64,000 bases of DNA from NCBI GenBank assembly GCA_963662795.1, contig OY759746.1, positions 3,584,001 through 3,648,000 of the forward strand. Reading direction: 5' to 3'. The stretch comes from Spirochaetia bacterium (lineage in GTDB: Bacteria > Spirochaetota > Spirochaetia > CADAEX01). This document shows, piece after piece, positions 4,360 to 45,082 of the stretch (position 1 is its first letter; the number at the start of each line of letters is the position of its first letter). The position numbers and the translations under genes were made by a program. The notes under the pieces were generated by a model that was not told where the DNA came from, made no database searches, and saw only the letters and a list, made by a program, of their open reading frames with translations.

Positions 4360-5346
4360 ATGAGAATTAATACTTTATTTTTAACACTTTTACTATTGTT
4401 ATCCAGTCAGGTCTTTTCTGAGAATATCCGCGGGCCAGTCAGGAATATTACAGTAATTAATCAGGAATTGTCGAAAACTGATGAAATCAGCATATCTCCT
4501 GAAGATATTATTGCCTTCCAGCTTGATAATAACAACAGCCTGCCTGTAAAAATACAGATGGAAATAAGGCTCTCTGAAACACTCAGGGAATATCCCAGTA
4601 CTTTTGCACTTTTTGTATATAACAATATTTCCCCCGCACCTTCAAATGAAGTATCAAGCTATATTGGAAATACAGTAAAATATTTCGTATTGCCTGATAA
4701 AAGCAGATTTTATGTTGAATTCTATTTTACAGCAAACCCATCCAGAAATGAAATAATACCTGGAACTCAAATACTGGCCCCTGATGATTTTAAAAAATCT
4801 TTTTTCCCGCTATTACTGACAGTCCTGCCCGTAATGAAAGGTATTCCTGATATGCTTCTTGATGAAACTATCAAAATTAAAACAGTTTTTTTCTATCCTG
4901 ATAAAGGAGATCTTCTTGTAAGTGTTTTTGAAGGCAAAAAAAACGGATCTGAAAAAACAAAAGATTTCAACTTATTTATTGATAATAAATCCTATGATAA
5001 TGCTGAATATATCAGTCTTTCTACAGGTGTTAAAAAAATACGGATAGAAAAAGAAGGATATATCCCTTTTGAGCAATCAGTTGTAATCAACAGAAATGAA
5101 AAAAGTACATTTTCAGCTGTTCTGGTTAAGAAAATGCCTCATATTGTAATTCTTGCCCCTACTGAGGCAGAAGTTTTTATTGACGGTAATTTGACATCAC
5201 AAAAAGAACTTACCAATCTTAATGAAGGAGAACATACAATTATTTTCAAGCTGGGACAATACAGCCTCAGCAGGAAAATGACCCTGGAAAACGGTAAAAA
5301 ATATACCGTAAATTTATTGCTCGATATTGATGTCGCTGTAGAATAA
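4360..5346 (+). CDS. Exported PEGA-domain protein
   Basis: Signal peptide; PEGA-like repeats (IRIEKEGYIPF; APTEAEVFIDG..L.EGEHTI). Confidence 0.7.
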   Translation: MRINTLFLTLLLLLSSQVFSENIRGPVRNITVINQELSKTDEISISPEDIIAFQLDNNNSLPVKIQMEIRLSETLREYPSTFALFVYNNISPAPSNEVSSYIGNTVKYFVLPDKSRFYVEFYFTANPSRNEIIPGTQILAPDDFKKSFFPLLLTVLPVMKGIPDMLLDETIKIKTVFFYPDKGDLLVSVFEGKKNGSEKTKDFNLFIDNKSYDNAEYISLSTGVKKIRIEKEGYIPFEQSVVINRNEKSTFSAVLVKKMPHIVILAPTEAEVFIDGNLTSQKELTNLNEGEHTIIFKLGQYSLSRKMTLENGKKYTVNLLLDIDVAVE

Positions 5347-5352
5347 AAAGTA

Positions 5353-5379
5353 TTAAGCTTATATTCATCAGGCCGATAA
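5353..5379 (+). promoter_or_regulatory. Sigma28 (FliA/SigD)-type promoter
   Basis: TTAAGCTT-N11-GCCGATAA; -10 matches the consensus exactly, -35 is 6/8 to TAAAGTTT. Confidence 0.65.
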
Positions 5380-5385
5380 TAAAAG

Positions 5386-5477
5386 TGTCGTGATAATATA
5401 GTTCCCCTCCCAGTTAACTATATTATACTCGATACCTCGAGGTAGACCGGTTCTTTTACAGGGCCGGTCTGTTTTTT
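5386..5477 (+). ncRNA. Candidate ~90-nt small RNA with C-rich (anti-SD-like) loop
   Basis: Lies between sigma28 promoter and intrinsic terminator; 11-bp stem ATAATATAGTT/AACTATATTAT with loop CCCCTCCCAGTT; no ORF. Confidence 0.5.
5444..5477 (+). terminator. Intrinsic terminator
   Basis: AGACCGGTTC/GGGCCGGTCT stem (2 G-U) followed by GTTTTTT. Confidence 0.75.
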
Positions 5478-5480
5478 ATC

Positions 5481-5509
5481 TTGACAAAGGGCCCCTCTGT
5501 TTTTAACCT
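5481..5509 (+). promoter_or_regulatory. Sigma70 promoter for PBP1A (likely leaderless transcript)
   Basis: TTGACA-N17-TAACCT; ATG at 5516 follows 6 nt later. Confidence 0.55.
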
Positions 5510-5515
5510 ATGTGC

Positions 5516-8047
5516 ATGTTATTCACTAAAAAACAAAAATTACTTCTTCAGATATTTGTCGGTTTAATCACTTTGTTAACCCTGTTATCAGGTATAACGT
5601 TTGGAGTAATATTTGCCCTTACGCGTAATATTTCCGAGTCCAATTCGATCGGGGAATATCACCCTTCGCTTCCATCCCAGATACTTGATATACACGGAAA
5701 TCTTATAACAGAATTTTTTTCTGATGAGAAAAGGGAGATCATCCCCATAGATGAACTTCCAAGACACCTGATTCAGGCTCTTATTACAAGGGAAGACAGA
5801 GATTTTTTTCAGCATAACGGATTCAGCCTTAAAGGGATAATCCGGGCAGCATGGAAAATAATGACACGCCAATATGTATCAGGAGGCAGCACTATAACGC
5901 AGCAGGTAGCAGGAAAACATTATGCTGACCGTTCGCAGAAAACCATAAAAAGAAAAATAATTGAATTATGGTGGGCACTTCAGCTTGAAAAGACCCTGAG
6001 CAAGTACGAGATTCTTGAATTATACCTTAATGAATCATATTTCGGTCATAACACATACGGAGTAGAAGCTGCATCGCAGTTTTACTTCCGCCATTCTGCA
6101 AGAGACCTTACAATAGCTGAATCTGCAATTCTGGTTATACAGCTTGCCAATCCGGCACGTTATTCCCCGATAAAATACCCGGCAAGAGCGCGTGTTATCC
6201 AGAAAGAAGTCATTAATCAGATGGTTGACCTGAATTACATAACACGCGAGGAGGCTGAGTTTTCTTTTAATGAATACTGGAATAAAACCTATGATCCGCT
6301 CCGTTCTTCTTCCGAAACTGCCTACCTTGTAAAGGATGATAAAGCTCCCTACTTCAGTGAATATATAAGGCAGGAACTGGAAGATATTTTATACGGGTCT
6401 CTTGATTATTTCAGAGACGGACTAGTAGTACATACAACACTGGATCTTAAATATCAGCAGAAAGCAGATAAATACATGCAGGATGGTTTTATTTCAATGA
6501 ATAAAACATATCTTGAAAACGCCGGAACCCGTACAAATTTTGCAGATAAGGAATTTTTACCAATAATTGAAGCACTTGCCTTATTTTTTGATCTTGACAG
6601 TATAAGATCAGCCGGTTCACAGGATAAAAAACTTGCTTATGATAATTATTATGATGTAGTTAACCCTGCCCTTAATGCATTCTCATTTCTTTTTGATTCT
6701 TCGGATTTAAGATTTATTGCCAGAATGGGACAGGCAAATCAGGCAGGAAAAATAAAACGGAACACTGTTGAAGGTGCTCTTATTTCCATAGATAACGAAA
6801 CCGGCTATATAAAGGCAATGGTAGGAGGAAGCGATTTCGAAACCAAAAAACTGAACAGGGCTGTACAGGCAAAGGTTATGCCTGGTTCTGCGTTCAAGCC
6901 ATTGTATTATTCTGCTGCAATATCATCAAAACTGCTTACCCCTTCCTCAATGCTTTATGACAAACCTGTAATGTTCCGAAATGATGACGGTACACCCTAT
7001 GCACCTAATAATTTTCTTGGAGAATGGAAAGGGCCTGTTTCAGTCAGGTATGCACTTGCAAACTCCATGAATATTCCCTCAATTCAGGTGCTTGATTTTA
7101 TAGGATTTGACGCAGCAATCAACAGGGCGGCACGCCTTTTGGGAATAAAAGATCCTGATGATATTGCAAATACATTTCCAAGGAAATACCCTCTGGCGTT
7201 AGGCATTATAGGGGTAGCGCCCATTCAGATGGCTAAAGCATTTGCCACATTTCCAAATCAGGGCAAAGAAGTTACACCGATTGGAATCCGCTATATTGAA
7301 GACAGAAGCGGAAAAATAATTCTTGAGCCGGAAAGGGAATTAAGGGCAAATCAAAAACGCGAAGGCGAACGGATACAGATTATGAGCCAGCAGGCTGCCT
7401 ATATTATGGTTGACATGCTGAAAAGCACTGTAGAATACGGAACACTTGCCAACAGAAGGAGGCTTGTTAACGGTTTTCCAATGGCTTTTGGAGGGAAAAC
7501 CGGCACAACTCAAAACTGGTCCGATGCGTGGACAGTCGGGTTTTCACCTTATATGACTACAGCAATATGGTTCGGTTTTGATATGCCTGGAAACTCTCTG
7601 GGTCTGAATCAGACTGGTGCTCAGGCGGCTGGGCCTGTCTGGGCAAGATATATGAAAGATGTTCATGAAAACAATCCCGAAATGCCGCCAGTGGAGTTTA
7701 AAAAACCTGGCGGCCTTGTAGAACTTTCTGTATGTTCTGTATCAGGGATGCTGCCGACAGAATACTGTAATGAAGGAACAAAATCAGAAATATTCATTGC
7801 CGGAACTGAACCAAGAAAATTTTGTACACTGCATCAGTTTAAATCTGACAGAAATGAAGAACTTATCAAAAAAATGCAGAACAATTTTTACACAGGATCT
7901 GTTGATCTTGAAAATCTGGAAAAAGAAATACTTAATTTACAGGATTATGAGACACTGAAGTCAATGTCGGAAATGGACAATAAACCATCCGGGGTAGAGA
8001 CTAACTCTGATAATTCAGGTAATATAAGTACGGATTTGCTTGATTGA
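5516..8047 (+). CDS. Class A penicillin-binding protein (PBP1A family)
   Basis: Transglycosylase motifs EDRDF, GGSTITQQ, RKIIE; transpeptidase SAFK, SMN, KTG; start could be 5510 or 5516. Confidence 0.93.
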   Translation: MLFTKKQKLLLQIFVGLITLLTLLSGITFGVIFALTRNISESNSIGEYHPSLPSQILDIHGNLITEFFSDEKREIIPIDELPRHLIQALITREDRDFFQHNGFSLKGIIRAAWKIMTRQYVSGGSTITQQVAGKHYADRSQKTIKRKIIELWWALQLEKTLSKYEILELYLNESYFGHNTYGVEAASQFYFRHSARDLTIAESAILVIQLANPARYSPIKYPARARVIQKEVINQMVDLNYITREEAEFSFNEYWNKTYDPLRSSSETAYLVKDDKAPYFSEYIRQELEDILYGSLDYFRDGLVVHTTLDLKYQQKADKYMQDGFISMNKTYLENAGTRTNFADKEFLPIIEALALFFDLDSIRSAGSQDKKLAYDNYYDVVNPALNAFSFLFDSSDLRFIARMGQANQAGKIKRNTVEGALISIDNETGYIKAMVGGSDFETKKLNRAVQAKVMPGSAFKPLYYSAAISSKLLTPSSMLYDKPVMFRNDDGTPYAPNNFLGEWKGPVSVRYALANSMNIPSIQVLDFIGFDAAINRAARLLGIKDPDDIANTFPRKYPLALGIIGVAPIQMAKAFATFPNQGKEVTPIGIRYIEDRSGKIILEPERELRANQKREGERIQIMSQQAAYIMVDMLKSTVEYGTLANRRRLVNGFPMAFGGKTGTTQNWSDAWTVGFSPYMTTAIWFGFDMPGNSLGLNQTGAQAAGPVWARYMKDVHENNPEMPPVEFKKPGGLVELSVCSVSGMLPTEYCNEGTKSEIFIAGTEPRKFCTLHQFKSDRNEELIKKMQNNFYTGSVDLENLEKEILNLQDYETLKSMSEMDNKPSGVETNSDNSGNISTDLLD

Positions 8048-8502: not shown

Positions 8503-9495
8503 TTAACGGTATTTTTTAAAATCATCAATAATTGACATCTTTTTAAGCTTAAGAAGCGCTTTTTCCTGGATCTGTCTTACTCTTTCCCTTGTTATCCCCA
8601 GTATCTCTCCTGTTTCCTGGAGAGTGTGAGGGCCGTCACCTTCAAAACCGTATCTGAGCATTATAATCATTTTTTCTCTGTCAGAAAGCTGTTCAAGTAT
8701 TTTGACCATTGTTTCATGAAGCATTTTTTGAAAAACTGTTTCGAGAGGGCTTAGGGTCTTTTCATCCCTCAGAAAATCTCCCAGTTTTGTTGTACTGCCG
8801 TCATCAATTATTGTATCAAGTGAAGATGTCTCATTGGAATACTGCATGACTTCCTCAACCCTTTCAGGAGTCATATTTACGTATTTGCTGATTTCATGAT
8901 AATCAGGTTCTTTTCCATTTTCTTTTGTAAGCTGTTTTGCAACAAGATAGCATTTTTTTATTGTATTCAGCATATGTATGGGTAGTCTTATTGTCCGTCC
9001 TTTATTTGCAAGAGCTTTAATTATTGCCTGTTTTATCCACCATGTTCCATATGTTGAAAACCTGCAGCCCCGTGTATAATCGAATCGCTCCACAGCTTCA
9101 ATAAGGCCTATATTTCCTTCATCTATCAGATCAAGAAGAGTAAGGCCCCTGTACTGGTATTTCTTGGCAATAGAGACAACAAGTCGCAGATTAGCTCTGA
9201 TCATTCTGGACTTGGAATGATTAAGCTTTTCTTTTGTTTTGAGAATCAGATTATTGTCATCCGGGGTTTTGCTGTATATCTCTTCAAGGGCATTTTTATA
9301 ATTTACAATTTCCTTGCCAAGTTCATATTCTTCGGAAATTGTGAGGAGTTTGATTTTTGAAATTTGTTTCAGATAAAGAAGTAACGGATCCGGGTTTTTA
9401 GTTCTCTCTTTTTTTATGTTATTAAACTTCCCGCTGCCGTTATTATTGTCATTTTCATTATTGAGTATATTTTTCCCGGCTTCTATTTTTTTCAT
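8503..9495 (-). CDS. Group 2-like sigma70 factor (RpoS-like)
   Basis: Regions 1.2 (DPLLLYLKQI), 2 (ANLRLVVSIAKKY, RFSTYGTWWIKQ), 4 (ITRERVRQIQ); no region 1.1. Confidence 0.88.
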   Translation of the reverse strand: MKKIEAGKNILNNENDNNNGSGKFNNIKKERTKNPDPLLLYLKQISKIKLLTISEEYELGKEIVNYKNALEEIYSKTPDDNNLILKTKEKLNHSKSRMIRANLRLVVSIAKKYQYRGLTLLDLIDEGNIGLIEAVERFDYTRGCRFSTYGTWWIKQAIIKALANKGRTIRLPIHMLNTIKKCYLVAKQLTKENGKEPDYHEISKYVNMTPERVEEVMQYSNETSSLDTIIDDGSTTKLGDFLRDEKTLSPLETVFQKMLHETMVKILEQLSDREKMIIMLRYGFEGDGPHTLQETGEILGITRERVRQIQEKALLKLKKMSIIDDFKKYR

Positions 9496-9515: not shown

Positions 9516-10322
9516 TCAAAGTCTGGGAGCTTTCTCCACATCAATAGGCTGACCATCTTTATAAACTGAGAAAAACATTGCCGGCTTATTGTCATAAACA
9601 TTAAACCCTATTATGCCTAATTCCGAGCCTGGCGCAACCGAATCTCCGACAGTCACATTTGTTTTTTCACTTCCACCGTAAACATACACATATCCTGAAA
9701 CAGATTCAACAAAAATTACTCTGCCGAATCCCCTGTAAGGCCCTTCCCATACAACTTTCCCCGAAGATACAGAATATACAACATCTCCGATTTTAGCAGA
9801 AATACGGGATCCCTGAAGTTTTCCTGACATTTTTTTCATCTCGCCGTTTACTGGCCAGTAATATCCGTTTTTTCCGTTCTCGATTTTTTTCCCTTCAGCA
9901 ATGCCTGATTCAGTATTGTTTTTTTCGATAGTATTCGGGATATTTTTATCATCCGGAACAGGTATCTTTATTTTCTGTCCGATCTTAATTACTGTTTTGT
10001 TTGTAAAACTGTTCTCTGACAGAAGAGTCTCGATTTCAATTTTGTTTTCTCTTGCGATACTGTAAAGTGTATCTCCCTTGGATACAACATATTCCTTACT
10101 ATCCAGAGTTTTTGTTTCGGGTATTATAAGTTTGTATCCGGCTTTAATTCTTGATGGATCATCAATCTTGTTTTCTATAAGTATTTTATCAAGTGAAACA
10201 TTGTACAATCTTGATATACTGTATAATGTTTCCCCTTTTTTAACAGGATGAATCCTCTCTCCTGCATAAACTGAAATATTTGCAATATGTATCAGAATTA
10301 AAGCAAAAATCCATTTCTGCAT
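9516..10322 (-). CDS. Two-LysM plus degenerate M23 protein (NlpD-like)
   Basis: Two LysM repeats (VKKGETLYSISR; VSKGDTLYSIAR); M23-like domain without HxxxD/HxH zinc ligands. Confidence 0.82.
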   Translation of the reverse strand: MQKWIFALILIHIANISVYAGERIHPVKKGETLYSISRLYNVSLDKILIENKIDDPSRIKAGYKLIIPETKTLDSKEYVVSKGDTLYSIARENKIEIETLLSENSFTNKTVIKIGQKIKIPVPDDKNIPNTIEKNNTESGIAEGKKIENGKNGYYWPVNGEMKKMSGKLQGSRISAKIGDVVYSVSSGKVVWEGPYRGFGRVIFVESVSGYVYVYGGSEKTNVTVGDSVAPGSELGIIGFNVYDNKPAMFFSVYKDGQPIDVEKAPRL

Positions 10323-44700: not shown

Positions 44701-45082
44701 AAAGTTCCCTCCTTAAATTGACTCAGAAAATCACATGGATCTTTTTTTATCATACGGTATGCGGGAGATAAAAAAATCAGATTTATGCTTTTATTGCAAT
44801 TTGAATTTATTAGCTCATTAATCTATTGTATACTTTGACTCAATTAATGTATTTATAAAATCATTTATTGAAAATATCAGAATAAACCCTATCAAAAAGA
44901 AATCCTATTGATTTTCTGAGTGTTTTTAAAATCACAGTTTGCATACTTTGGCTTGTGATTTTAAACACTTCAATATAACCAACGAATTATTTTAAATCTG
45001 TTTAATATGACCGTCAAGCTAATAAATATATTTTTTCTTTACTTAAGTATTTTTGACTGTACCCTGTAATTTCCCATCAAGG

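Follow-up and report, generated by a model that had tools for sequence, protein, structure and literature searches.

Does the 163-bp gap between the genes for a PEGA-domain protein and the class A penicillin-binding protein PBP1A in a Spirochaetia bacterium (assembly GCA_963662795.1, contig OY759746.1) hold an RNA gene of its own, and, if so, what would that RNA do? The gap lies in a stretch of 64,000 nt, positions 3,584,001 to 3,648,000 of the contig, hereafter called the window, whose numbering is used for the coordinates below. An original prediction, made from these letters, had placed here a sigma28-dependent small RNA (sRNA) displaying an anti-Shine-Dalgarno (anti-SD) loop. Comparative data support this proposal: promoter, loop, and architecture are conserved, the stems covary, FliA is encoded, and early flagellar genes and ftsZ lead the predicted targets. 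On this basis we consider it rather likely that positions 5386-5478 of the plus strand form an independent sRNA gene of a previously undescribed, Spirochaetota-wide family, whose product would be a sigma28-timed anti-SD repressor. The conservation computed here is the decisive evidence that a real RNA, and not a promoter motif alone, appears to be encoded at this locus.

The element is made up of the parts first described for it, whose coordinates are collected in Table 1. A near-consensus FliA promoter, TTAAGCTT-N11-GCCGATAA (5353-5379), stands directly 5′ of the RNA start, as is expected of sRNAs of the sigma28 class, and is followed by the perfect 11-bp stem with its C-rich loop, the palindrome, and the intrinsic terminator, all of which were confirmed in the sequence; no open reading frame (ORF) of at least 20 aa lies inside 5369-5480. 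We infer the 5′ end from its distance to the −10 box (6-8 nt past it) and place the 3′ end in the U-run. The RNA at 5386-5478 folds at −32.1 kcal/mol (z = −5.09), with 0 of 200 shuffles as stable, and leaves the C-rich loop open: CCCCUCCCAGUU is unpaired in both the minimum-free-energy and the centroid fold, except for one predicted internal pair. A terminator scan also called the terminator, at 5439-5475. Within the 3.93-Mb genome the element is single-copy at full length, the remaining matches being of 28 nt or less, and in the listed loci there is one matched position per genome; a repeat or mobile element (a repetitive extragenic palindrome or miniature inverted-repeat transposable element) was rejected on these grounds.

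A DNA search of 41 related genomes gave a match in 31, and the segment from the −10 box to the hairpin (5373-5425, query 174-226) retained 79-94% identity even in other families, in which the neighboring genes, far more diverged than this segment, could not be aligned. When 20 loci found by BLAST were aligned, they shared a common plan of −35 box, −10 box, stem P1, hairpin, linker, and terminator, and 28 nt around the loop were invariant save for one change in one locus. The palindrome TACCTCGAGGTA is limited to close relatives, and elsewhere the linker differs in both sequence and length. Scanning one genome per species for an exact 22-mer yielded at least 119 loci, and among the matches listed (80 titles) all were Spirochaetota assemblies, the listed taxa being Spirochaetia, Sediminispirochaeta, Alkalispirochaeta, Marispirochaeta, Treponema, and one metagenome-assembled genome labelled Borreliella. 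Loss of promoter and loop conservation had been named at the outset as a reason to give up the prediction; the opposite was found, with both conserved across many spirochete families.

Covariation in relatives, also proposed as a check, points the same way. From 139 loci we retained 113 distinct RNAs, after dropping 14 duplicates, 3 loci with no recognizable −10 box, 4 with short flanks, and 5 with no clear terminator; 111 of the 113 were aligned, and 2 with mis-set ends were left out. In an alignment made with MAFFT only (A1, 111 RNAs), the consensus fold has 19 pairs, 14 of which show compensatory changes. A covariance model built from the 111-RNA alignment (R1; 98 positions, 21 pairs) matches the window at 5380-5477 with 77 bits and, independently of the 22-mer pattern, matched 29 of 151 genomes sampled across the phylum, in 20 of 88 genera. 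By family the matches are uneven, with 13 of 14 genomes in one family and 0/16, 0/15, and 0/6 in three large ones. The core UUCCCCUCCCA sits in the loop of 29 out of 29 model matches, and around it the hairpin stem (UAUAG/CUAUA, GAUGG/CCAUC, GGCGG/CCGUC), P1, and the terminator change in step. After fitting to the model, 93.2% of alignment cells are paired, compared with 76.5% in shuffles (0 of 500 as high) and at most 42.6% in slid controls; 20 of the 21 pairs carry compensatory changes, including 6 of 6 in P1 (97% of cells paired) and 9 of 9 in the terminator stem. Because this alignment was fitted to the model, the structure is favored in these figures, and the MAFFT-only result agrees with them. 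As in the anti-SD sRNA class, the C-rich motif is thus held single-stranded in a hairpin loop whose closing stem covaries. An automatic filter for further homologs proved too strict, and the contexts of candidates were judged by eye; looser searches read in this way added 9, 4, and 3 more diverged copies, so that all searches together give 40 sRNA carriers among the 59 genomes that were also examined for fliF.

Two variants of the RNA were observed in passing. One genome (G108, loci L441 and L448) may hold two copies, the second of which shares the loop and the next 18 nt with the promoter-bearing copy and has another 5′ side. At L180 and L181 (G173 and G119, both from the same family), the 3′ half of the loop carries, right after UUCCCCUCCCAA, an additional GC-rich hairpin of 20-30 nt that leaves the core exposed.

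The promoter is conserved at sigma28 spacing in the homologs. The −10 octamer reads GACGATAA in 52 of the 113 loci, GTCGATAA in 26, TCCGATAA in 7, and GCCGATAA in 4, with the others similar, a tally in which CGA.A was required at locus extraction and the remaining octamer positions were free. The motif [CT]TAA[AG], which was not required at extraction, lies 14-17 nt before the octamer in 70 of the 113 loci (exactly 15 nt in 50), set against a control in which 21% of shuffles hold it anywhere in a 26-nt window. The conserved form, TAA(A/G)-N15-CGATAA, is the TAAA-N15-GCCGATAA layout of sigma28 promoters, and sigma28-like boxes accompany all 29 covariance-model matches, though the model begins past the promoter. 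They are also the same as the boxes of the Treponema denticola flaB2 sigma28 promoter, as mapped by rapid amplification of cDNA ends (−35 TTAA, −10 CCGATAA; PMC9481697). The window's genome encodes FliA (293.3 bits against a cut-off of 189.6; WhiG equivalog 431.1 against 343) and has sigma28-like boxes at 2 of its 3 flaB genes. The idea that the −10 box is a part of the RNA that pairs with P1 was rejected, since the box stays CGATAA while P1 changes and so is not in a pairing. Another sigma28-type box, TTAAAG-N13-TGCCGATAA, was seen at G000:C1 2880261-2880287 (+), within the region upstream of flaB, on the opposite strand and pointing away from that gene, with no gene start called within 400 nt of it.

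Which mRNAs might such a loop contact? We scored the loop region by duplex energy against −30 to +12 of 3809 starts in the window's genome, a set that rests on crude gene calls, and found that ftsZ ranked 1, fliP 2, fliI 3, fliF 7, and fliO 17 (identities from Pfam). Full-length duplexfold energies, which ignore the RNA's own fold, were left unused. This genome generally uses AAGGAG as its SD and has a canonical 16S 3′ end; the predicted target ribosome-binding sites (RBSs) of the ftsZ/fliP/fliI/fliF/fliO set are G-rich and abut the AUG (CACUGGGGGGGGGA, UUUUGGGGGGGGA, CCGGGGGAGGGGA, CACUGGGGAGGGGAA, and CCGGGGAGGGGGG). Only 18 of the 3809 starts have a G3+[AG]G3+ tract within 16 nt, and these include 4 of 28 flagellar-cluster genes versus 14 of 3781 genes elsewhere (Fisher p = 6.7e-6); the remaining 13 G-tract genes include mreB, two ribonucleotide reductases, a lipoate ligase, and a cyclase. 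Flagellin or che RBSs, originally suggested for comparison with the loop, are not supported as main targets, and flagellin was rejected: its RBSs are ordinary AAGGAGG, none in the top 45. The original prediction had also pointed to a near-complement in the amtB RBS of the window. That RBS does exist before an ammonium-transporter ORF; a special link does not follow, as it ranks 99 of 3809 (−17.0 kcal/mol). At several target RBSs (ftsZ, fliP, fliI, nrdD, lipoate ligase; including G000:C1 3075631-3075647 and 3100538-3100553, and relatives) we observed homopolymeric G tracts of 8-11 nt, which are slippage-prone, so that they could differ in length from cell to cell or strain to strain and shift both SD spacing and pairing.

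Complementarity at these sites is kept across species. An exact complement of the invariant loop core, UGGGAGGGGAA, widely abuts the fliF start, where the complementarity reaches past the SD core, to (C)UGGGAGGGGAA. Counting a duplex of −19 kcal/mol or better as a strong match, fliF has one in 19 of the 24 genomes that pass the strict model search and, after later-found copies were added, in 29 of 40 carriers versus 6 of 19 non-carriers. Among 20 genomes ftsZ has a strong match in 10 of 16 carriers and 0 of 4 non-carriers, fliP in 6 of 15 versus 0 of 4, and fliI in 5 of 15 versus 0 of 4, with the start of these three genes taken as the best-pairing in-frame candidate, a rule that favors matches and was applied to the negative genomes as well. 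The control gene fliG, which is next in the fliF operon, reaches −19 in 0 of 18 genomes (median −11.1) and has ordinary GGAGGA sites. RBS complementarity conserved across species, as expected of anti-SD sRNAs, is thus found computationally for fliF and ftsZ as compared with fliG. Site variants in which A is replaced by G (poly-G) still pair with the loop U, and since this U pairs with A or G, the loop fits the frequent poly-G in place of GGGAGGGG at target sites. In a carrier genome of 1.1 Mb there are only 9 GGGAGGGG-N0-5-ATG sites (control 6); ftsZ is among the 5 of these that precede a real ORF, and the fliF site there stands before a GTG start.

Taken together, these data suggest the following sequence of events. 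The sRNA gene would be transcribed from its sigma28 (FliA)-type promoter, and its product would therefore appear at a late stage of flagellar assembly, with FliA active. The RNA would consist of a 5′ clamp stem (P1), a hairpin loop displaying the invariant single-stranded UUCCCCUCCCA(G), a variable linker, and the terminator, and the loop would pair in vivo with rare G-rich RBSs lying directly against the start codon and reading (C)UGGG(A/G)GGGGAA, with fliF and ftsZ as the most consistent targets and fliI, fliO, and fliP matched in part of the family. Regulation would run toward repression: pairing would block ribosome access and reduce translation of FliF and FtsZ (and of FliI, FliO, and FliP in some lineages). 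FliF forms the MS ring, the first flagellar part to be assembled, and the predicted outcome is that late flagellar genes would feed back negatively on early ones, with a possible coupling to cell division. A bolder version, which we offer tentatively and would sooner doubt than expect, is that a single phylum-wide riboregulator made only once FliA is released at hook-basal-body completion stops translation of FliF and FtsZ (in some lineages also FliO/FliP and FliI), thereby setting how many periplasmic flagella form at each cell end and coupling flagellar completion to division. According to the supplementary record of PMC12223175, Treponema pallidum Nichols carries the element between PBP1A (TPANIC_0705) and TPANIC_0706, and this flagella-division reading would therefore include the agent of syphilis.

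Several observations weigh against a sigma28-timed anti-SD sRNA, beside the start rule and the crude gene calls given above. At the RNA level, 3 of the 9 sequencing runs are recorded as RNA, all of them metatranscriptomes that contain 5-7% of the sampled words, and over 5200-5700 one run (X3) covers 5420-5589, another (X1) 5576-5700, and the third (X2) nothing; metatranscriptome contigs give no cover of 5386-5420 and no readable ends or strand. Minus-strand cover of the T. pallidum gap is low (mean 18.8, median 5, third quartile 39), and the gap is not in the 10 intergenic transcripts listed in PMC12223175, in a library depleted of small RNAs, from which 8 of 45 tRNAs are missing. The promoter motif alone, counted with the relaxed pattern [CT]TAA[AG]-N14-16-N[ACT]CGATA[AT], is not enriched in the 3.93-Mb genome (49 matches, 7 intergenic, fewer per Mb than in shuffles). 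Since 149 of the 151 phylum genomes have FliA, its co-occurrence with the sRNA has no test power. Two lineages have a short form of the RNA behind a sigma70-like promoter. As to the targets, 11 of the 40 carriers have no strong fliF match, 6 genomes have the fliF site and no detected sRNA, the sampled genomes are related, so that none of these counts is independent, and loop-target covariation is beyond reach because the loop is invariant. Finally, the GC-rich carrier G024 has 105 instances of GGGAGGGG-N0-5-ATG (control 56), which track the orientation of genes, and the motif is therefore a general SD in that genome.

Some side observations belong to these genomes. In G024 the loop would match a large share of RBSs. 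In the short form (L271 in G045, L257 in G061), a promoter reading TTGCAT...TGGTATACT leads straight into a hairpin that has the same UUCCCCUCCCAG loop and doubles as the terminator, and G061 has no G-rich fliF site.

The main rival to the anti-SD reading, though itself unlikely, holds that the RNA is real and acts as a sponge or scaffold, binding or titrating a protein that recognizes the C-rich loop and stem, with the G-rich RBSs merely strong SDs. The general use of G-rich SDs in G024 and the carriers that lack a fliF site fit this view, as does the near-invariance of the 28 nt in the 20 BLAST-found relatives, which include the upper stem and exceed what a stem needs; in distant lineages, however, the stem is free to covary and the loop alone stays fixed, the complementarity extends past the SD core and is kept at fliF and ftsZ but not at fliG, and no candidate protein was identified. 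Somewhat less probable still is an RNA acting mainly in cis on PBP1A, either as a sigma28-driven leader with a conditional terminator or by interference with the PBP1A promoter. Linkage to PBP1A is deep, as 101 of 164 core loci and 27 of 41 diverse loci are followed by the gene in the same orientation, and the U-run ends at 5477, 3 nt short of the TTGACA at 5481. Against this, terminators are strong and canonical throughout, no conserved alternative anti-terminator pairing was seen in the folds, PBP1A has a promoter of its own, and in 14 of the 41 diverse loci PBP1A is not downstream (G093 has it upstream, in the opposite orientation), for which reasons assignment to the leader/attenuator class was rejected; in T. 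pallidum, moreover, cover falls to the median of 5 in the gap, compared with 47.7 over the gene upstream of it and 192 over PBP1A (PMC12223175), and an effect in cis leaves the invariant loop unexplained. That the locus is only the 3′ untranslated region and terminator of the PEGA operon, with sigma28-like boxes arising by chance, would agree with the unremarkable genome-wide promoter count, with a −35 box only 7 nt past the PEGA stop codon, and with the PEGA C-terminus that precedes the RNA core, in the same orientation, at 83 of 164 core loci, but it is very improbable given that the boxes keep their fixed spacing even at loci with no detected upstream PEGA gene, that termination needs neither P1 nor the invariant loop, and that the element is found in other gene contexts as well.

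As for the surroundings of the predicted sRNA gene, the PEGA gene is the final member of a cell-envelope cluster (ABC ATPase, MlaD, TPR, M23 peptidase), and the identity of PBP1A is supported by NCBIfam (602.9 bits for PBP_1a_fam, whose cut-off is 508.75). The separate sigma70 promoter that had been claimed for PBP1A is indeed there, as TTGACA-N17-TAACCT; it was read directly off the sequence and is absent from the promoter-scan output because its second hexamer is weak. A TTGACA immediately 3′ of the terminator is also seen in relatives. The PBP1A mRNA seems to be leaderless or nearly so (5481-5518), as the promoter ends at 5509 and no SD is present; a second ATG stands at 5516, 6 nt past the −10 box, and the codons ATG-TTA/ATA-TTC-AC are the part kept in relatives. 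Farther downstream, 3-5 kb from the RNA, lie minus-strand genes for a group-2 RpoD/RpoS-like sigma factor (8506-9495, below all equivalog cut-offs) and for a LysM/M23 protein like ActS/DipM (9519-10322). With its M23 peptidase, PBP1A, and LysM/M23 protein, the neighborhood appears to be one of cell-wall remodeling and division.

Table 1. Coordinates of the predicted sRNA element, its parts, and nearby or related features in the window
Feature	Position	Strand	Details
Whole element	5353-5478	+	sigma28-type promoter and predicted RNA of ~92 nt; no ORF
−35-like element TTAAGCTT	5353..5360	+	sigma28-type; 11-nt spacer to −10
−10 element GCCGATAA	5372..5379	+	sigma28 consensus
Predicted small RNA, ~92 nt	5386..5478	+	from fold, covariance-model match, and no ORF of at least 20 aa
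Stem P1	5386-5390 / 5430-5434	+	UGUCG / CGAUA; encloses the hairpin
Hairpin	5393..5426	+	perfect 11-bp stem, ATAATATAGTT 5393-5403 / AACTATATTAT 5416-5426
Hairpin loop CCCCTCCCAGTT	5404-5415	+	C-rich
Family-wide invariant loop core UUCCCCUCCCA	5402-5412	+	in all 29 covariance-model matches
Loop segment CCCCUCCC		+	within the hairpin loop
Linker palindrome TACCTCGAGGTA	5433..5444	+	small hairpin or extension of the terminator stem
Intrinsic terminator GACCGGTTC / GGGCCGGTC	5445..5477	+	GC-rich stem 5445-5469, T-run 5472-5477
Intergenic gap			163 bp, from the PEGA-domain gene (4360-5346) to the PBP1A gene (5510-8047)
PEGA-domain protein gene	4360..5346	+	upstream neighbor; Pfam PEGA, E 8.9e-10
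PBP1A gene promoter, TTGACA-N17-TAACCT	5481..5509	+	TTGACA 5481-5486, TAACCT 5504-5509; abuts the ATG
PBP1A gene, class A penicillin-binding protein	5510..8047	+	downstream neighbor; Pfam Transgly and Transpeptidase
amtB RBS GGAGGGAACT	44703-44712	−	precedes an ammonium-transporter ORF; not counted in the sRNA system

To our knowledge, the number and timing of periplasmic flagella in spirochetes and their tie to division are poorly understood, and we know of almost nothing on posttranscriptional control in spirochetes outside Borrelia apart from CsrA-FliW. The locus described here offers a concrete candidate regulator, conserved from free-living spirochetes to treponemes, for which a seed of 11 nt, a promoter, and predicted target genes can be named. 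If the proposed mechanism is true, feedback on early flagellar genes by sigma28-made sRNAs would extend from Proteobacteria to a distant phylum, and the predicted link to ftsZ would be new. The RNA would also be a new Rfam family: a cmscan of 5000-5900 against Rfam 15 with E up to 10 gave no match, the best overlapping hits being L20_leader, at 18.4 bits for a gathering score of 58.7, and suhB, at 14.4 bits for one of 41, neither of which extends beyond the terminator, and no covariance-model match was obtained for FliX, MotR, UhpU, FlgO, or other curated sRNA families of Rfam 15. No description of it was found in the full-text literature covered, which does not extend to subscription journals, in agreement with the initial remark that such an RNA was not recognized from spirochetes. 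The Borrelia sRNAs LdsR, MtrR, and OspR were set aside as unrelated and plasmid-borne (PMC13734083), and for T. denticola a review reports only 11 miRNA-sized RNAs (PMC8551640).

The kind of regulator is already known, both as sRNAs made by sigma28 and as anti-SD sRNAs with C-rich loops; what is new is the family, its unusually broad conservation, and the predicted fliF/ftsZ target pair. We take CJnc170 and CJnc230 of Campylobacter jejuni to be similar sigma28-dependent flagellar sRNAs. Those of Escherichia coli, UhpU, MotR, FliX, and FlgO, resemble the spirochete RNA in having a FliA-type promoter and a position at or beside the untranslated regions of other genes, as well as a late stage of production and base-pairing feedback on flagella, both of which are predicted here (PMC10578931). 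Unlike them, the spirochete RNA has no sequence or structure relation to the E. coli sRNAs in the Rfam search, is conserved phylum-wide and not in a few genera, and uses one invariant C-rich loop as its seed, with fliF and ftsZ as predicted main targets. A second parallel is with the Gram-positive anti-SD sRNAs RsaE/RoxS (PMC2790875, PMC6158497) and 6C (PMC6486639), which direct an unpaired C-rich loop motif against the G-rich SDs of several mRNAs, a pairing that is predicted here; high conservation over a large taxon and likely independence of Hfq-type chaperones are further shared features. The spirochete RNA differs from these in belonging to another phylum, in having a single C-rich loop and no match to their Rfam models, and in its flagellar sigma-factor promoter and its predicted flagellar and division targets, which are not metabolic. 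Finally, CsrA-FliW, which controls flagellin translation in spirochetes and Bacillus (PMC9481697), likewise places posttranscriptional flagellar control at the RBS and times it by assembly state, as we propose for this RNA. CsrA, however, is a protein that acts on GGA motifs of flagellin mRNA, whereas here an RNA would pair with the G-rich sites of early genes, in a genome whose flagellin RBSs are ordinary AAGGAGG.

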